This document shows positions 2,608-12,963 of a stretch of 12,963 nt of DNA, one piece after another; within the stretch, counting starts at the first letter, position 1; each line of letters begins with the position of its first letter. A program made the translations under genes and the position numbers. Source of the DNA: a virus (taxonomy: Duplodnaviria; Heunggongvirae; Uroviricota; Caudoviricetes); IMG/VR virus record IMGVR_UViG_2541047825_000010, positions 1-12,963 of that record; one strand, written 5' to 3'. The notes beneath the pieces are model-generated. The model worked only from the letters and a program-made list of their open reading frames with translations. It was not told where the DNA came from and searched no databases.

Positions 2608-2672
2608 GTTGGATGTTGTTAAAATTCCATTTGTATTTGATCAGAACGCTCGGTTGCCGCCGGGCGTTTTTT
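2608..2672 (+). ncRNA. oop: oop-like antisense RNA overlapping the 3' end of cII
   Basis: 3' portion CAGAACGCTCGGTTGCCGCCGGGCGTTTTTTATT matches the lambda oop 3' end as recalled. Ends in a terminator (stem 2647-2653 / 2660-2666, T-run 2667-2672) lying inside the cII coding 3' end on the opposite strand. 5' end is estimated from the promoter. Confidence 0.55.
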
Positions 2673-2912
2673 ATTGGTGAGAATCGAAGCAACTTGTCGT
2701 GCCAATCGAGCCATGTCGTCGTCAACGACGCCCCATTCAAGAACAGCAAGCAGCATTGAGAACTTTGGAATCCAGTCCCTCTTCCACCTGCTGATCTGCG
2801 ACTTATCAACTCCCACAGCTTCCGCTGTCTTCTCAGTTCCAAGCATTGCGATTTTGTTAAGCAACGCACTCTCGATTCGTAGAGCCTCGTTGCGTTTGTT
2901 TGCACGAACCAT
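2619..2912 (-). CDS. cII: Transcriptional activator CII, 97 aa
   Basis: MVRANKRNEALRIESALLNKIAMLGTEKTAEAVGVDKSQISRWKRDWIPKF... is near-identical to lambda CII as recalled. Upstream context TAAGGAAATACTTACATATG matches lambda. The track ORF start at 2999 is an in-frame upstream extension. Confidence 0.92.
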   Translation of the reverse strand: MVRANKRNEALRIESALLNKIAMLGTEKTAEAVGVDKSQISRWKRDWIPKFSMLLAVLEWGVVDDDMARLARQVASILTNKKRPAATERSDQIQMEF

Positions 2913-2925
2913 ATGTAAGTATTTC
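2890..2925 (+). promoter_or_regulatory. pRE-type CII-activated promoter
   Basis: TTGC-N6-TTGC at 2890-2903 (TTGCGTTTGTTTGC) spanning the cII start, as in lambda pRE. Directed toward cro and c2. Confidence 0.5.
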
Positions 2926-2970
2926 CTTAACAAATAAGGAGTTATGCGCATCAACTTATGCGCGTTGTAT

Positions 2971-3013
2971 TCCCGCATTTCGGCGGGAATGAGGACCATG
3001 ACTGTTAAAGAGC
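2971..3013 (-). promoter_or_regulatory. nutR (boxA + boxB hairpin) between cro and cII
   Basis: On the minus strand: boxA GCTCTTTAACA and boxB TCCCGCCGAAATGCGGGA. Both are identical to the nutL copies at 4104-4144. Confidence 0.6.
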
Positions 3014-3020
3014 AATTTGC

Positions 3021-3206
3021 TTATGCCGCTTTGCGGTAAGCGCTTTCTTGATACTTCAGGGCGCCAGCTGTAACGACTTCCAGTCGATAGGCGTCTTTCT
3101 CTGGGATGACTTCCTTCCACTGAGAGACTGCTGCGTCGCTAATGCCTAACGCTTTAGCTACAGCACGCTGGGTTCCGAAGTGGTCGATAACATCTTTCTT
3201 GTACAT
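3021..3206 (-). CDS. cro: Cro repressor, P22 type, 61 aa
   Basis: MYKKDVIDHFGTQRAVAKALGISDAAVSQWKEVIPEKDAYRLE... is near-identical to P22 Cro as recalled. Divergent from c2 across the operator region. Confidence 0.92.
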   Translation of the reverse strand: MYKKDVIDHFGTQRAVAKALGISDAAVSQWKEVIPEKDAYRLEVVTAGALKYQESAYRKAA

Positions 3207-3220
3207 AGACTCGCTCCGAA

Positions 3221-3286
3221 ATTAAAGAACACTTAAATTATCCACTAAAGGAATCTTAAGTCAAGTTTATTTAAGATGTCTTAACT
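3221..3286. promoter_or_regulatory. OR1-OR3 operators with divergent PR (toward cro) and PRM (toward c2)
   Basis: Three 18-bp pseudo-palindromes of P22 type: ATTAAAGAACACTTAAAT (3221-3238), ACTAAAGGAATCTTAAGT (3244-3261), ATTTAAGATGTCTTAACT (3269-3286). Minus-strand PR: -35 TTGACT (3259-3264), 17-bp spacer, -10 ATAATT (3236-3241). c2 has no Shine-Dalgarno and may be leaderless. Confidence 0.7.
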
Positions 3287-3937
3287 ATGAAAACTCAATT
3301 GATGGGAGAGCGCATTCGCGCTCGGAGAAAAGAACTCAAGATCAGGCAGGCCGCACTTGGAAAGATGGTCGGCGTGTCTAATGTTGCCATATCTCAGTGG
3401 GAACGCTCTGAGACAGAGCCAAATGGAGAGAATCTTCTCGCCCTGGCTAATGCGTTGAAGTGTTCCCCTGACTATCTGATGAAAGGAGAGGAAAGTCTTT
3501 CAAACATTGCCTATCACAGTAGGCATGATCCAAGAGGGTCATACCCTCTGATTAGCTGGGTGAGCGCAGGATGCTGGATGGAAGCTGTAGAACCATATCA
3601 TAAGCGTGCAATAGATAACTGGTACGATACAACCGTAGACTGTTCAGAAGATTCGTTTTGGTTGGACGTGAAGGGAGACTCAATGACGGCTCCGGCCGGT
3701 CTCAGTATCCCTGAAGGAATGATAATACTCGTCGATCCTGAAGTAGAGCCGCGTAACGGGAAACTGGTAGTTGCAAAGCTCGAAGGAGAAAACGAGGCAA
3801 CTTTCAAGAAGTTAGTTATTGATGCAGGCAGGAAGTTTCTAAAACCACTTAACCCACAATATCCGATGATCGAGATCAACGGAAACTGCAAAATCATCGG
3901 CGTAGTTGTCGATGCAAAACTAGCAAACCTTCCATAA
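3287..3937 (+). CDS. c2: Prophage repressor C2 (CI-type, HTH plus LexA-like S24 autopeptidase domain), 216 aa
   Basis: Near-identical to P22 C2 as recalled (MxTQLMGERIRARRKxLKIRQAALGKMVGVSNVAISQWERSETEPNGENLL..., C-terminal GDSM...KL). Confidence 0.93.
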   Translation: MKTQLMGERIRARRKELKIRQAALGKMVGVSNVAISQWERSETEPNGENLLALANALKCSPDYLMKGEESLSNIAYHSRHDPRGSYPLISWVSAGCWMEAVEPYHKRAIDNWYDTTVDCSEDSFWLDVKGDSMTAPAGLSIPEGMIILVDPEVEPRNGKLVVAKLEGENEATFKKLVIDAGRKFLKPLNPQYPMIEINGNCKIIGVVVDAKLANLP

Positions 3938-3960
3938 GGGGGCATTCGCCCCTTTTTTTT
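3938..3960 (+). terminator. Rho-independent terminator after c2
   Basis: GGGGC-ATTC-GCCCC hairpin followed by eight T. Confidence 0.7.
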
Positions 3961-4002
3961 ATTTCCTTTAAAAATCAAAGCCAAACTTAAGTTACGAAAG
4001 AA

Positions 4003-4064
4003 AATTTAAGTTTTCTTCAAAAATACTCTTGACCATTAATTAAAGAGATCTTAAATTTAAGCCA
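4003..4064 (+). promoter_or_regulatory. OL operators and PL promoter
   Basis: Operator-like 18-mers ATTTAAGTTTTCTTCAAA (4004-4021) and ATTAAAGAGATCTTAAAT (4039-4056). -35 TTGACC (4029-4034), 17-bp spacer, -10 TAAATT (4052-4057), with the operator overlapping the promoter. Confidence 0.55.
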
Positions 4065-4103
4065 TCAGCAGGACGCTGGAAGCCAAACGGAACAGATTGG
4101 CAG

Positions 4104-4144
4104 GCTCTTTAACATTGATGGGATTGTCCCGCCGAAATGCGGGA
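4104..4144 (+). promoter_or_regulatory. nutL (boxA GCTCTTTAACA, boxB hairpin TCCCGC-CGAAAT-GCGGGA)
   Basis: Identical boxA and boxB to the minus-strand copy after cro. Lies in the PL leader upstream of N. Confidence 0.6.
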
Positions 4145-4160
4145 ACCAAAGAGTAGTTGG

Positions 4161-4232
4161 CTTTGGGGTGACGTGAAGTGCAGCTGCACGACGGCAACCG
4201 GAAGATAAGCACCCGGCGCGTCACCGCCAAAG
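4161..4232 (+). promoter_or_regulatory. Long-range stem-loop in the N leader
   Basis: CTTTGGGGTGACG (4161-4173) pairs with CGTCACCGCCAAAG (4219-4232). Encloses a perfect 12-bp palindrome GTGCAGCTGCAC (4178-4189). Lies 20 nt upstream of the N start. Confidence 0.4.
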
Positions 4233-4251
4233 TCAATCATCGGAGGTCAAC

Positions 4252-4551
4252 ATGACAGTAGTCATTACATATCTGGCTGACGATAACGCCAGAAATCGCC
4301 GCAGAGCACGCAGACAGGCTCAACGTGAACAGGCAATGCAAGAGCAGCGACTGGCGCGAAAAATTGCGCTAAAGCTCTCTGGTTGCGTCAGGGCAGATAA
4401 AGCAGCATCACTCGGAAGCCTTCGCTGCAAGAAGGCAGAAGAAGTCGAGCGTAAACAGAACCGTATTTACTACCGCAAGCCACGCAGTGAAATGGGTGTG
4501 ACTTGTGTTGGTCGCCAGAAAATGAAATTAGGCAGCAAACCACTTATTTGA
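4252..4551 (+). CDS. N: Antitermination protein N (P22 gene 24 equivalent), 99 aa
   Basis: N-terminal arginine-rich motif NARNRRRARRQAQREQ. C-terminus ...NRIYYRKPRSEMGVTCVGRQKMKLGSKPLI resembles the lambda N C-terminus as recalled. First gene after PL and nutL. Shine-Dalgarno GGAGG. Confidence 0.85.
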   Translation: MTVVITYLADDNARNRRRARRQAQREQAMQEQRLARKIALKLSGCVRADKAASLGSLRCKKAEEVERKQNRIYYRKPRSEMGVTCVGRQKMKLGSKPLI

Positions 4552-4559
4552 GGTGAGAT

Positions 4560-5030
4560 ATGACAAAATCATGGAGCGTACCTTTTCCTGAATCAGAAAC
4601 TGAACATGATGGAATGCCTGTTTTCTGGAGATTCCAGGCGACAGTTGAAGAAGATGGAATCAAAATATTCGCACTTCAATATATAGCTTTTCATCAGACA
4701 GAGCATTATGCATGGTTGGTTCCTGCGCATTGGATTATTGATTTTAAACCAGCACCAAATCAGTGGTTACGGGAATGGAAACAAAGGAGAAATAGATATG
4801 CAATTAAGAAAGTAGCAAAAAATGCAGAAAGATCTTTTGCATTCCCAACGAAGAAACTTGCCATTGAAAGTTTATTGCGCCGGAAGAAATACCATTTAAT
4901 GAGAATCAAACAAGATTTGGCTGTTGTATCAACTCTTGTTGATGGGATGAAGAATATTGATACATCAACACCAGATATTGAATATAACTTTGGACACAAC
5001 CAAGAAACAGAAAATTGGGTATTCTACTAG
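4560..5030 (+). CDS. Hypothetical protein, 156 aa, AT-rich moron
   Basis: ATG 8 nt after the N stop with Shine-Dalgarno AGGTGAG. G+C is lower than neighbours by eye. No predicted transmembrane segment and no recognised motif. Confidence 0.7.
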   Translation: MTKSWSVPFPESETEHDGMPVFWRFQATVEEDGIKIFALQYIAFHQTEHYAWLVPAHWIIDFKPAPNQWLREWKQRRNRYAIKKVAKNAERSFAFPTKKLAIESLLRRKKYHLMRIKQDLAVVSTLVDGMKNIDTSTPDIEYNFGHNQETENWVFY

Positions 5031-5054
5031 GCCGCATAGTCGGCCTTTATTTTT
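5029..5054 (+). terminator. Rho-independent terminator after the 156-aa ORF
   Basis: AGGCCG-CATAGT-CGGCCT hairpin followed by TTATTTTT. Confidence 0.6.
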
Positions 5055-5494: not shown

Positions 5495-5520
5495 GCCCTC
5501 CAGTGTGAGGGCCTTTTTAT
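5495..5520 (+). terminator. Rho-independent terminator upstream of cIII
   Basis: GCCCTC-CAGTGT-GAGGGC hairpin followed by CTTTTTAT. Confidence 0.55.
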
Positions 5521-5584
5521 ATGCATACCAATAACGCTTCACTCGAGGCGTTTTCGTTATGCAATCAAACAGAAGGAGCATCCT

Positions 5585-10070: not shown

Positions 10071-10104
10071 CAATCCTCGAACTCGCGGGGATTTCTTTTA
10101 TCTG

Positions 10105-10130
10105 AACTCGCTACGGCGGGTTTTGTTTTA
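10105..10130 (+). terminator. Rho-independent terminator closing the coupled operon
   Basis: AACTCGC-TACG-GCGGGTT hairpin followed by TTGTTTTA. A degenerate upstream copy sits at 10078-10100. Confidence 0.45.
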
Positions 10131-10441: not shown

Positions 10442-10483
10442 GACGTAACCAATATTCGAATTGAAGAACTGAAAGAACACCAA

Positions 10484-10506
10484 GCCGCCTGATGGCGGTT
10501 TTTTAT
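10484..10506 (+). terminator. Rho-independent terminator
   Basis: CCGCC-TGAT-GGCGG hairpin followed by TTTTTTATT. Confidence 0.6.
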
Positions 10507-10868: not shown

Positions 10869-10945
10869 GCCTCACACTCGATGAGGCCTGTTCATTTCTC
10901 AAGATATCCAGACCTACCATCGCCGCATCAATGCGGTTTTTTATT
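10869..10945 (+). terminator. Two tandem terminator hairpins
   Basis: GCCTCA-CACTCGA-TGAGGC (10869-10887, weak T-run) and CCGCA-TCAA-TGCGG followed by TTTTTTATT (10923-10945). Confidence 0.55.
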
Positions 10946-10987: not shown

Positions 10988-11188
10988 ATGCAACACGAAC
11001 TACAGCCTGATTCACTGGTTGATTTGAAATTCATCATGGCCGATACTGGCTTTGGTAAAACCTTCATCTACGACCGGATTAAGTCCGGCGACCTGCCAAA
11101 AGCCAAAGTTATCCACGGGCGAGCAAGATGGTTATATCGTGACCATTGTGAATTCAAAAATAAGCTCTTAAGCCGCGCCAATGGGTAA
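10988..11188 (+). CDS. AlpA/Xis-like excisionase-type DNA-binding protein, 66 aa
   Basis: LVDLKFIMADTGFGKTFIYDRIKSGDLPKAKVIHGRARW fits the AlpA-family HTH pattern as recalled. Shine-Dalgarno GGAGA. Lies next to the att-like tRNA fragments. Confidence 0.65.
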   Translation: MQHELQPDSLVDLKFIMADTGFGKTFIYDRIKSGDLPKAKVIHGRARWLYRDHCEFKNKLLSRANG

Positions 11189-11715: not shown

Positions 11716-12963
11716 TTATATTGCTGAAGGTACTGGCGTTTCCATCACTATTTGCTCACGTTTTTTACTCAGGAAGAAAATGCCAAATAGCAACATCAGG
11801 CAGACAATACCCGAAATTGCGAAAAAAACCGTCTGGTAGCCTGCGTGGTCAAAGAGTATCCCAGTCGGCGTTGAAAGCAGCACAATCCCCAACGAACTGG
11901 CAATTTGAAAACCAATCAGAAAGATCGTCGACGACAGGCGCTTATCAAAATTTGCCACGCTGTATTTGAAGACGGATATGACACAAAGTGGAACCTCAAT
12001 GGCATGTAACAGCTTCACTAATGAAATAATCCAGGGGTTAACGAATAGCGCGCAGGAAAGGATACGCAACGCCATAATCACAACACCGATAAGTAATGCA
12101 TTTTTTGGCCCTACCCGATTCACAAAGAAAGGAATAATCGCCATGCACAGCGCTTCGAGTACCACCTGGAATGAGTTGAGATAACCATACAGGCGCGTTC
12201 CTACATCGTGGGATTCGAATAAACCTGCATAAAAGACAGGAAAGAGTTGTTGATCAAAAATGTTATAGAAAGACCACGTCCCCACAATAAATATGACGAA
12301 AACCCAGAAGTTTCGATCCTTGAAAACTGCGATAAAATCCTCTTTTTTTACCCCTCCCACATCCGCCGCTACGCACTGGTGTTCCTGCTCTTTAAAACGC
12401 ATGTTGATCATCATAAATACAGCGCCAAATAGAGAGACCAACCAGAAGTTGATATGGGGACTGATACTAAAAAATATGCCAGCAAAGAATGCGCCAATAG
12501 CATAGCCAAAAGATCCCCAGGCGCGCGCTGTTCCATATTCGAAATGAAAATTTCGCGCCATTTTTTCGGTGAAGCTGTCAAGCAAACCGCATCCCGCCAG
12601 ATACCCCAGACCAAAAAAGAGCGCCCCCAGAATTAAACCTACAGAAAAATTGCTTTGCAGTAACGGTTCATAAACGTAAATCATAAACGGTCCGGTCAAG
12701 ACCAAGATGAAACTCATACACCAGATGAGCGGTTTCTTCAGACCGAGTTTATCCTGAACGATGCCGTAGAACATCATAAATAGAATGCTGGTAAACTGGT
12801 TGACCGAATAAAGTGTACCTAATTCCGTCCCTGTCAACCCTAGATGTCCTTTCAGCCAAATAGCGTATAATGACCACCACAGCGACCAGGAAATAAAAAA
12901 GAGAAATGAGTAACTGGATGCAAAACGATAGTACGCATTTCTGAATGGAATATTCAGTGCCAT
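11716..12963 (-). CDS. cscB: Sucrose:H+ symporter, LacY-family MFS (CscB-like), 415 aa
   Basis: Twelve-helix hydrophobic profile. Clear LacY-like blocks (DKLGLKK, GPFMIYVYEPLLQ, EYGTARAWGSFGYAIG, PKNALLIG). N-terminus MALNIPFRNAYYRF matches CscB as recalled. Start codon is at the window edge. Confidence 0.85.
   Translation of the reverse strand: MALNIPFRNAYYRFASSYSFLFFISWSLWWSLYAIWLKGHLGLTGTELGTLYSVNQFTSILFMMFYGIVQDKLGLKKPLIWCMSFILVLTGPFMIYVYEPLLQSNFSVGLILGALFFGLGYLAGCGLLDSFTEKMARNFHFEYGTARAWGSFGYAIGAFFAGIFFSISPHINFWLVSLFGAVFMMINMRFKEQEHQCVAADVGGVKKEDFIAVFKDRNFWVFVIFIVGTWSFYNIFDQQLFPVFYAGLFESHDVGTRLYGYLNSFQVVLEALCMAIIPFFVNRVGPKNALLIGVVIMALRILSCALFVNPWIISLVKLLHAIEVPLCVISVFKYSVANFDKRLSSTIFLIGFQIASSLGIVLLSTPTGILFDHAGYQTVFFAISGIVCLMLLFGIFFLSKKREQIVMETPVPSAI

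Follow-up and report, generated by a model that had tools for sequence, protein, structure and literature searches.

In a 12,963-nucleotide stretch of DNA from a Caudoviricetes virus (IMG/VR record IMGVR_UViG_2541047825_000010; we call the whole stretch that was analysed the window), an 11-nt sequence (GCTCTTTAACA) and an 18-nt hairpin (TCCCGCCGAAATGCGGGA) each occur exactly twice, on opposite strands. This raises the question of whether the two pairs are the boxA and boxB elements of nutL and nutR sites for N antitermination and, if they are, what specificity the N protein of this locus has. We find that the N/nut system of the window is real and looks functional, and that relatives already have it annotated. 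We are confident that the two sites represent nutL and nutR from a lambdoid E. coli prophage (CUS-3/HK620-like, P22 group) and that they form part of an HK620-type N/nut module.

Paired nut sites and the N gene

Both boxA and boxB match exactly at the two sites, as had been claimed in a first-pass annotation of this DNA. The only further match to the boxA pattern has one mismatch and lies at 12387, inside an unrelated gene. Matches to the boxB 18-mer with two or fewer mismatches were found in 0 of 200 dinucleotide-preserving shuffles. The identity between the two boxB copies reaches 19 nt (4127-4145 versus 2970-2988), and identity between nutL and nutR is confined to boxA and boxB. The spacer between these elements differs both in length (12 nt at nutL, 14 nt at nutR) and in sequence, and the flanks differ as well. 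The minimum-free-energy fold of each 18-mer has a 6-bp stem and a 6-nt unpaired loop, and at nutR the flanks lengthen the stem to 8 bp, spanning 2990-2969.

The site that we call nutL is located 3' of PL and 5' of an intact N gene and nutR is located between cro and cII, with both transcribed in the sense orientation (Table 1). Each site is thus in sense orientation behind an early promoter, and the resulting orders, PL-nutL-N and cro-nutR-cII, uphold the earlier assignment of the pair as nutL and nutR. The locus has the boxA, the boxB 3' of boxA, and the paired sense-strand sites of a lambdoid N/nut system. Annotated nut sites from phage 21 and HK620, and those of the P22 type, share this boxA exactly. 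The presence of the N gene 3' of nutL differs from the put-type arrangement of HK022, in which there is no N gene. A search of the whole window against Rfam with an E-value threshold of 1 gave no match; Rfam has no nut-site family.

Table 1. Positions of the nut sites, neighbouring genes, promoters, hairpins, and terminator-like sites in the window.
Feature	Position	Strand	Evidence or remark
cII, lambda-like, first gene 3' of nutR	2619..2912	-	Pfam Phage_CII, E 5e-48, profile positions 1-90/91
Hairpin GCGCAUAAGUUGAUGCGC directly past nutR	2946..2963	-	approximately the position of tR1 as annotated in HK620
nutR boxB hairpin	2969..2990, core 2971-2988	-	exact match; same as annotated HK620 nutR
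nutR boxA	3003..3013	-	exact match; starts 8 nt past the cro stop codon
cro, P22_Cro family	3021..3206	-	Pfam P22_Cro, E 8.7e-28
PR-like promoter, TTGACT-16-GATAAT	3237..3264	-	10/12 consensus positions; upstream of cro
cI/C2-type repressor	3287..3937	+	HTH and S24 peptidase domains
PL-like promoter, TTGACC-17-TAAATT	4029..4057	+	operator repeats overlap; same position as PL of phage 21 and HK620 in their records
nutL boxA (GCUCUUUAACA)	4104..4114	+	exact match; about 47 nt past the PL -10 hexamer
nutL boxB hairpin	4127..4144	+	stem UCCCGC/GCGGGA, loop C-GAAA-U; same as annotated HK620 nutL
boxB RNA, 5'-GUCCCGCCGAAAUGCGGGAC-3'			
Long hairpin in the N leader, 3' of nutL and 5' of the N ribosome-binding site	4156..4237	+	z-score -2.75
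N antiterminator gene, 99 aa	4252..4551	+	PHROG 271 'anti-termination protein N-like', E 4.8e-37
N residues 9-30, ADDNARNRRRARRQAQREQAMQ			
Terminator-like site after the first gene 3' of N	5029..5046	+	6-bp stem with 5 GC pairs, then a T-run
Two adjacent terminator-like sites	5495-5512, 5533-5552	+	consensus scan
Two terminator-like sites	10072-10093, 10104-10123	+	consensus scan
Terminator-like site	10482..10501	+	consensus scan
Terminator-like site, close to where the PL operon ends	10922..10937	+	consensus scan

The protein encoded by the N gene has the two parts that characterize a lambdoid N, an N-terminal arginine-rich motif (DNARNRRRARRQAQRE, residues 11-26) and a C-terminal RNA-polymerase-binding region, with a match to Pfam N_peptide of 20.2 bits that is under the curated cutoff of 27.9. 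A match to PDB 6GOV (E 2.5e-4) aligns residues 62-99 with the lambda N C-terminus. Taken as a whole, the protein is a mosaic composed of an HK620-type arginine-rich N-terminus and a phage-21-type C-terminus. A single register aligns the arginine-rich motif of the window N with those of P22, phage 21, and lambda, with Ala13, Arg16, and Arg21 invariant, and the window motif resembles the P22 and lambda motifs in its RRRxRR core. Lambda N is disordered when free.

There are also hairpins next to the nut sites. The one directly past nutR has no U-run and hence is not an intrinsic terminator by consensus; any role that it has is putative. The long hairpin in the N leader is at what we take to be the position of the RNase III hairpin in the lambda N leader. 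We considered an H-19B-like alternative fold in which boxA pairs with AAAGAG (4149-4154) located 3' of the nutL boxB. We rejected this pairing, as neither nutR nor phage 21 has the complement and divergent copies of nutL read AAAGUG.

Loop fold and specificity of boxB

The first-pass annotation noted that the boxB loop is 6 nt long versus 5 nt in lambda and took this to suggest an N specificity different from that of lambda. The difference in length is literally true, but comparative data suggest that the loop is a GNRA tetraloop and thus nearer to the GNRA fold of lambda and P22 than the count had implied. Among 456 nut hairpins found beside an HK620-type motif and folded with RNAfold with no loop imposed, the only loops observed were CGAAAU, CGCAAU, A-GAGA-U, A-GAAA-U, and A-GGAA-U, in a set whose loci overlap and are therefore non-independent. 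A separate set of loops gathered with a GNRA-shaped regular expression is circular in this regard; the RNAfold tally is free of this circularity. The loops of distant relatives from Pantoea and Erwinia all conform to C/A-GNRA-U (GAAA, GAGA, GGAA, GCAA), and the switch from C to A at the 5' flank of the loop allows Watson-Crick pairing (A-U) with a U that is invariant. The genome contig search that included these most informative Pantoea and Erwinia loci gave four confirmed loci from 62 pattern matches, a low yield that results from N being short. Because the variation of the loop is limited in this way, the 6-nt loop is probably a GNRA tetraloop whose closing pair is C·U or A-U. This restriction predicts the RNA fold of the HK620-type nut class.

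Covariation in the stem was analysed using 26 distinct hairpins, and double changes were found at five of the nine pairs. There were 24 double-change cells versus 9.6 ± 2.9 in shuffles, a value reached by 0 of 500 shuffles, and the covariation score was 0.309 versus 0.203 in shuffles (0 of 500), with every slid register worse; this signal comes from a few divergent lineages, most copies being near-identical and some loci being duplicates of the same contigs.

It is also conceivable, though we consider it unlikely, that the boxB of these genuine nut sites folds in its own way as a true hexaloop, recognized either as in phage 21 or in a new way. Consistent with this, the minimum-free-energy fold leaves six bases unpaired, C·U is a non-standard pair, and the closest overall relatives of the window N are of the phage 21 type, whose boxB is a hexaloop. 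However, a hexaloop with a fold of its own does not account well for central four bases that are only GAAA, GAGA, GGAA, or GCAA, for a change at the 5' flank that creates a Watson-Crick pair, or for an arginine-rich motif with the core seen in P22 and lambda. Moreover, the CUAACC hexaloop of phage 21 itself consists of four bases in a GNRA-like motif with a non-canonical C·C pair at its flanks, and the GACAA pentaloop of P22 is a GNRA fold with one base (C) looped out (PMC12550061).

Natural domain swaps among N proteins provide information about which part of N is associated with the type of boxB. The loop is CGAAAU both where the HK620 motif is joined to a phage 21 C-terminus, as in the window N, and where it is joined to a 933W-like C-terminus, as in HK620 N. 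It is CUAACC where the phage 21 motif is joined to a phage 21 C-terminus (phage 21 N) or to an HK620-like C-terminus (HK629 N), and a lambda motif with a phage-21-like C-terminus (mEp213 N1, HK542) is accompanied by a lambda boxB. Thus, boxB type tracks the arginine-rich motif and not the C-terminus, and these swaps are a clean comparative demonstration that boxB specificity sits in the arginine-rich N-terminus of N. The reverse test used a DNA-selected set of 142 nut sites with enough downstream sequence. Downstream of these sites we found an N open reading frame with NARNRRRA (70 sites), cII (68 sites), or an N with close variants of the motif (4 sites); a lambda, P22, or phage 21 motif was found downstream of 0 of the 142. 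This strict two-way association of boxB with one type of arginine-rich motif, in both the protein-selected and the DNA-selected sets, supports an HK620-type N specificity that differs from those of lambda, P22, and phage 21, in line with the earlier suggestion regarding lambda.

The window has the boxB CCGC-CGAAAU-GCGG and the N motif DNARNRRRA(R/K)R of the HK620-type class, identical to HK620. Across the class, boxB takes the form CCGC-[C/A]-GNRA-U-GCGG. The first-pass annotation had proposed a comparison with the nut sites of lambda, phage 21, and P22, and the window boxB proved to differ from all three. The window has neither the GCCCU-GAARA-AGGGC pentaloop and MDAQTRRRERRAEKQAQW motif of the lambda type nor the CUAACC loop and GTAKSRYKARRAELIAERR motif of the phage 21 type. 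It also does not have the GACAA pentaloop and GNAKTRRHERRRKLAIER motif of the P22 type, since the extra C is absent from its loop, although the P22-type boxB is the nearest to that of the window in stem and closing position.

The HK620-type N/boxB may constitute a fourth ARM-RNA class, one with no cross-reaction with lambda, P22, or phage 21 and with a plain GNRA tetraloop that has a C·U or A-U closing pair and no looped-out base. We regard this as a serious possibility and put it forward tentatively, stopping short of favouring it. The looped-out base of lambda boxB has been linked to NusA engagement. If there is such a class and this link holds, the extra loop base would be dispensable for assembly of the antitermination complex; the HK620-type pair would also, if the class is real, be a ready-made orthogonal peptide-RNA tethering pair. 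In the searchable literature we found no binding, structure, or readthrough experiments on HK620-type N/boxB; for the nut and boxB sites of HK620 and CUS-3 we found only genome papers, in which the sites are not treated.

Spread, integrity, and proposed action of the module

We examined 80 IMG/VR loci picked by N protein alone and found that the nutL boxB is kept in 79 and both copies in 74. The repeats are thus conserved in relatives, a point on which the first-pass annotation had made its reading depend. The distance between nutR and nutL in IMG/VR loci falls into classes of 1.13, 1.67, 1.72, 2.26, and 2.8 kb, so that different immunity cassettes occur between the same nut pair. PL-nutL-N is present at 80% coverage or more in 478 of 5,426 complete E. 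coli genomes, and the ten best matches of this genome search overlie features that bear no label other than 'hypothetical protein'. For annotation, our results locate the two nut sites of an E. coli prophage module that is very common. A few relatives (mEp213 N2, L257, L034) have an HK620-type N without its own nutL, showing that an HK620-type N gene can persist without the site.

The sites and N might be intact by descent in a defective prophage in which the system is unused. No integrase was seen within the window, which breaks off on its left side within replication genes, and 2.5 kb at its right end is shared at 100% with another prophage, one disrupted by an IS, in strain Combat2C1. The rest of the Combat2C1 prophage differs from the window. 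In the related KplE1 prophage, xis (torI) and int are at opposite ends, and with this layout it is expected that int is missing from the window. We judge such a relic improbable given that the N, cro, cI, and cII genes, the two promoters, and the pair of nut sites are all intact, and that the window N is 100% identical to the N of many full-length (37-48 kb) viral contigs.

Another explanation is that the repeats are mere recombination linkers ('boundary sequences') that stem from recent shared ancestry and flank an exchangeable immunity cassette without having an RNA function. The CUS-3 record labels the region from the end of cI to the start of N, including nutL, as 'bsq5; boundary sequence', several immunity cassettes are found between the same nut pair, and most copies are identical, as expected from recent spread. 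However, linkers of this kind are a very poor fit to identity that is limited to boxA and boxB, to a hairpin kept by compensatory changes in divergent Pantoea, Erwinia, and IMG/VR relatives with a loop limited to GNRA, and to a boxB type that tracks the arginine-rich motif of N; we give this explanation very little weight. A linker role is compatible with nut function and is no substitute for it. We find it scarcely credible that the hairpins, GC-rich stem-loops just past promoters, are intrinsic terminators, attenuators, or protein-bound DNA palindromes and not N-binding RNA, because there is no T-run after 4144 or 2971, neither hairpin was called by the terminator scan or has the GC-rich hairpin plus U-tract of an intrinsic (Rho-independent) terminator, the central 6 nt are non-palindromic, the two sites share one fixed orientation with respect to transcription and boxA, and the variation of the loop follows an RNA-fold rule (GNRA) and not a DNA half-site rule.

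We return to the reading of the repeats as nut sites. A consensus scan of the window found 31 terminator-like sites versus 12.6 expected, including several strong sites on the + strand 3' of N, in agreement with the earlier claim that there are many terminators in the PL operon. The site that follows the first gene 3' of N is a candidate target for antitermination. From homology, we infer that N binds boxB and that the system depends on Nus factors and permits readthrough of terminators. Once PL and PR are active, the RNA emerging from each would carry a single-stranded boxA, to which host NusB-NusE should bind. The N-terminal arginine-rich part of N (DNARNRRRARRQAQRE) would bind boxB, 12 nt past boxA in nutL and 14 nt past it in nutR, and the central and C-terminal parts of N, which are of the phage 21 type, would engage NusA and RNA polymerase. 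The resulting polymerase would resist downstream terminators in both early operons.

Comparison with known N/nut systems

The nut sites are already known, since the same sites are annotated as 'putative' nutL and nutR in the GenBank record of HK620 (AF335538), where boxA, boxB, and the nutL flanks are base-for-base the same as in the window. HK620 also has the same layout of PL, N, cro, and cII, and residues 1-64 of its N are approximately 98% identical to the window N. By contrast, the C-terminal third of HK620 N is of the ...CLPNVAIYAAGYRKSKQLTAR type whereas that of the window N is phage-21-type, and the two immunity (cI/cro) cassettes differ. The HK620 genome paper is reportedly that of Clark et al. 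(J Mol Biol 2001).

CUS-3 (CP000711) has 99% DNA identity to the window over cII-cro-cI-nutL-N, an N protein that is 99% identical, and the same two copies of boxB. Unlike the window, it has an insertion between nutL and N. The nut sites are unannotated in the CUS-3 record, and a long cII open reading frame is annotated across nutR.

Phage 21 (OL657228), whose annotated record shows the same layout, has an 11-nt boxA and PL-leader context identical to those of the window, an immunity region with approximately 85% DNA identity, and an N protein in which residues 37-99 are 97% identical. By base-pair count the loop of its boxB is a hexaloop, as in the window. The two differ in that phage 21 has the motif GTAKSRYKARRAELIAERR, the loop CUAACC, and different stems in nutL and nutR, whereas the window has DNARNRRRARRQAQRE, CGAAAU, and identical stems. 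The NMR structure of the phage 21 N peptide-boxB complex is PDB 1NYB.

In P22, the N-terminus of the gene 24 (N) product (MTVITY...) is similar to that of the window N with the same motif register, and boxA is consensus-type. The P22-type nutR boxB, CCGC-C-GACAA-C-GCGG, has the same inner stem as the window boxB and likewise two pyrimidines at the closing position. Its loop is the GACAA pentaloop with C looped out, whereas the window has a four-base GNRA without the extra base. The structure of the P22 N peptide-boxB complex is PDB 1A4T.

The window resembles lambda in overall architecture, gene order, and the RRRxRR arginine core, and the C-terminal regions of the two N proteins are homologous. 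The window cII is approximately 97% identical to lambda cII DNA, and cII together with the oop terminator is approximately 97-100% lambda-like. The differences are in the elements of the nut sites and in the motif of N. The lambda boxA is a shortened CGCUCUUA form whereas the window boxA is consensus-type, the lambda boxB (GCCCU-GAARA-AGGGC) has a 5-nt loop compared to 6 nt in the window, and Trp18 of the lambda motif is replaced by Ala at the aligned position in the window N. These findings leave the established picture of N antitermination unchanged.

Nut sites in the early region

The window holds the early region of a lambdoid prophage, in reverse orientation relative to the lambda map. 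A PL-like promoter on the plus strand is followed by boxA and boxB, a structured leader and an intact ORF for N, the phage antiterminator protein; on the minus strand boxA and boxB begin 8 nt past the stop of cro. This placement of promoters and genes identifies the plus-strand site as nutL and the minus-strand site as nutR. The N ORF matches PHROG 271, 'anti-termination protein N-like' (E 4.8e-37), and over residues 62-99 it matches the lambda N C-terminus (PDB 6GOV, E 2.5e-4); Pfam N_peptide scores 20.2 bits, under its curated cutoff of 27.9.

Features of the early region and of the right end of the window
Feature	Position	Strand	Evidence or remark
cII, lambda-like	2912-2619	-	Phage_CII, E 5e-48; then replication genes
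cII, longest ORF	2619-2999	-	126 aa, start 2999
Strong terminator antisense to cII 3' end	2643-2672	+	30/30 identical to lambda
nutR boxB 18-mer TCCCGCCGAAATGCGGGA	2988-2971	-	exact match
nutR boxA GCTCTTTAACA	3013-3003	-	exact match
cro	3206-3021	-	Pfam P22_Cro, E 8.7e-28
PR-like promoter	3264-3237	-	10/12 consensus positions
Operator-like repeats	3220-3239, 3269-3286, 4000-4020, 4038-4058		~18-20 nt
cI/C2-type repressor and its terminator	repressor 3287-3937	+	
PL-like promoter	4029-4057	+	operator repeats overlap it
nutL boxA GCTCTTTAACA	4104-4114	+	exact match
nutL boxB 18-mer TCCCGCCGAAATGCGGGA	4127-4144	+	exact match
AAAGAG	4149-4154	+	
N-leader hairpin	4156-4237	+	z-score -2.75
N ORF, 99 aa	4252-4551	+	GGAGG ribosome-binding site
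Terminator-like sites	5029, 5495, 5533, 10072, 10104, 10482, 10922	+	terminator scan
TorI-like excisionase gene	10988-11188		
Oligosaccharide MFS transporter gene	11716-12963	-	window right end

The first-pass annotation had described boxA and boxB as identical at the two sites on opposite strands, and we found exact matches of both boxes at each. A repeat finder returned 2970-2988 and 4127-4145 as a perfect inverted repeat of 19 nt, and 200 dinucleotide-preserving shuffles contained no match to the boxB 18-mer even with up to two mismatches. The boxA-boxB spacers are unlike, TTGATGGGATTG (12 nt) versus GTCATGGTCCTCAT (14 nt), so identity is confined to the boxes and there is no duplicated block. 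Folding of each boxB 18-mer gives a 6-bp stem and leaves six bases unpaired, and on the minus strand the flanks lengthen the stem to 8 bp (2990-2969).

By the lambda paradigm, boxA would be bound by NusB-NusE and boxB by the arginine-rich motif of N, the central and C-terminal parts of N would engage NusA and RNA polymerase, and the modified polymerase would read through terminators in both early operons. We take the window boxA to match the rrn consensus. A consensus-type rrn boxA binds NusB-NusE about ten-fold more tightly than the shortened boxA of lambda (PMC2800207). The terminators claimed earlier for the PL operon have counterparts in seven terminator-like sites downstream on the plus strand; the scan gave 31 sites versus 12.6 expected. 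Our literature search found no published binding or readthrough experiment on the HK620-type N/boxB class, which combines boxB CCGC-CGAAAU-GCGG with the N motif DNARNRRRA(R/K)R.

Just 3' of nutL boxB, AAAGAG can base-pair with boxA when the leader is folded to minimum free energy. We rejected a functional pairing because AAAGAG is missing from nutR and from phage 21 and is not kept in divergent nutL copies; the pairing at nutL is probably incidental. A long stable hairpin between nutL and the N ribosome-binding site presumably occupies the position of the lambda N-leader RNase III hairpin; in one relative (L211) its interior is replaced and the stem base retained. The operator-like repeat family (TTAAAGA...TCTTAAAT) overlaps PR and PL and presumably constitutes OR and OL, the operators belonging to this immunity type. 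The longest cII ORF crosses nutR boxB and corresponds to a 381-nt CDS in CUS-3; Pfam Phage_CII matches the 97-aa form, whose lambda-like start is the ATG at 2912, over positions 1-90, and the longer ORF was probably annotated with its start too far upstream. The cII region is ~97% identical to lambda although the immunity region is not lambda's, and the antisense terminator lies where HK629 has a feature annotated 'similar to coliphage lambda oop RNA'. At the right end, 10400-12963 matches E. coli strain Combat2C1 with 100% identity, but elsewhere that strain's prophage is different and IS-disrupted; sequence comparison places a mosaic junction near the attachment site.

Conservation and spread

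Among 80 IMG/VR loci chosen solely by N similarity, the exact nutL boxB is kept in 79, and 74 of these also have nutR boxB unchanged on the opposite strand; the repeats are thus conserved in relatives. Distances between the two boxB copies fall into classes of 1.13, 1.67, 1.72, 2.26 and 2.8 kb, and the same nut pair therefore encloses different immunity cassettes. PL-nutL-N matches 478 of the 5,426 complete E. coli genomes at a coverage of 80% or more, and in the ten best matches the underlying features are labelled 'hypothetical protein'.

Positions 2700-4700 are 99% identical to CUS-3, Gally, JEP4, N7 and IME10 and ~85% identical to phage 21. CUS-3 contains the same two boxB copies, and HK620 (AF335538) carries the annotations 'nutL; putative N-utilization leftward' and 'nutR; putative N-utilization rightward', whose sequences match those of the window base for base. 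The nut sites are therefore not new, having been annotated already in a close relative, and they are very common in E. coli.

The gap from nutL boxB to the N start codon ranges from 105 to 616 nt among relatives (L091-L209), the window having a short form of 107 nt, and CUS-3 (L002, 2945-3260) has an insertion there; insertions thus occur between nutL and N. Some relatives have N genes in tandem that differ in specificity. In mEp213 (L004, 1016-1348 and 2501-2773) the lambda-type N has its own lambda nutL, and upstream of the HK620-type N is only a degenerate boxB (stem G to T) without boxA. In an IMG/VR locus, L257, three consecutive ORFs (~2154, 2462 and 3204) encode arginine-rich motifs: an N of P22 type accompanied by a P22 nutL, a 'DNSRNRRRERRK' ORF, and an N of HK620 type. 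Such extra N genes might be relics, might trans-activate other prophages, or might act in exclusion.

Arginine-rich motif and boxB type

The window N has a mosaic sequence by tblastn, sharing 98-100% identity over residues 1-64 with N of HK620, mEp213 and HK630, and 97% over residues 37-99 with its phage 21 counterpart. The central and C-terminal regions fused to the HK620-type motif are of at least six kinds. Aligned in one register, the motifs of the window N, P22, phage 21 and lambda share invariant Ala13, Arg16 and Arg21. In natural combinations, boxB type tracks the arginine-rich N-terminus regardless of the remaining N.

Natural combinations of N motif, N C-terminus and boxB loop
Motif	C-terminus	Source	Loop
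HK620-type	phage 21-type	this window	CGAAAU
HK620-type	933W-like	HK620	CGAAAU
phage 21-type	phage 21-type	phage 21	CUAACC
phage 21-type	HK620-like	HK629	CUAACC
phage 21-type	third type	mEp235, mEpX1	CUAACC
lambda-type	phage-21-like	mEp213 N1, HK542	lambda GAAGA / GAAAA

We also ran the test in reverse, selecting by DNA (boxA plus CGAAAT) 142 nut sites with at least 900 nt downstream. These are followed by an N ORF with NARNRRRA in 70 cases and a cII-like gene in 68; the remaining four precede N proteins with the close variants DTAKNRRRERR, DNTRNRRRARR and DNAKNRRRDRR. No lambda, P22 or phage 21 motif was found downstream of any of the 142. Both the natural swaps and the reverse set argue for the N specificity different from lambda that had been suggested earlier, and this comparative placing of specificity in the arginine-rich motif is a modest addition of our analysis.

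Stem covariation and loop fold

In 26 distinct hairpin variants aligned in a fixed register, five of nine stem pairs show two-sided changes; two outer pairs, for instance, exchange U-A for C-G, and the second pair counted from the loop exchanges G-C for A-U. Double-change cells number 24 versus 9.6 +/- 2.9 in shuffles, and the covariation score is 0.309 versus 0.203; neither value was reached in 500 shuffles. All slid registers score worse, and a smaller set gave the same direction.

Relatives from Pantoea, Erwinia and further IMG/VR loci, selected by the arginine-rich peptide alone, proved the most informative. Pantoea piersonii has nutL UCUCCGC-CGAAAU-GCGGGGA, an Erwinia species has nutL UCUCCGC-AGGAAU-GCGGGGA and nutR GCUCCCAC-CGCAAU-GUCGGAGC, and others have loops A-GAGA-U and A-GAAA-U. 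RNAfold, with no loop pattern imposed, was applied to 456 nut hairpins adjoining HK620-type motifs (from overlapping loci, so the counts are not independent) and gave five loop types only: CGAAAU, CGCAAU and A-U-closed GAGA, GAAA and GGAA. The central four bases thus vary only within G-N-R-A; the 5' flank is C or A and the 3' flank always U. In a Pantoea/Erwinia-like nutR sub-lineage (L212, L213, L153 and other IMG/VR loci), stem pair three, counting from the loop, is mismatched as C·C, C·A, C·U or U·C, as if the mismatch itself were conserved.

In our reading the window boxB forms a canonical GNRA tetraloop on a closing C·U mismatch, which some lineages replace by Watson-Crick A-U; this prediction is a further modest addition. 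The 6-nt loop noted earlier stands by base-pair count, and structurally it is probably no departure from the GNRA-recognising family; a true hexaloop fold seems to us unlikely. That the hairpins are terminators or DNA operators fails: no T-run lies 3' of either boxB and neither was called by the terminator scan, the hairpin centre is non-palindromic, both sites keep to the sense orientation and loop variation follows an RNA-fold rule. A pure 'boundary sequence' fails as well, since only the boxes are conserved between nutL and nutR and divergent relatives retain the fold, not the sequence. The first-pass observation and its interpretation are correct.

The proposed GNRA tetraloop has precedents in known systems. 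The phage 21 record annotates boxA-L/nutL and boxA-R/nutR at homologous positions and shares the 11-nt boxA, but its hairpins are unlike those of the window (nutL UCUCAAC-CUAACC-GUUGAGA; nutR UCACC-UCUAACCG-GGUGA). In its CUAACC hexaloop, four bases form a GNRA-like (UMAC) motif with a non-canonical C·C pair at the flanks, and the P22 GACAA pentaloop adopts a GNRA fold with C looped out (PMC12550061). The P22-type nutR, CCGC-C-GACAA-C-GCGG, has the inner stem of the window boxB and likewise a pyrimidine-pyrimidine closing position. Within the GNRA-recognising family, the window boxB class is probably the simplest.
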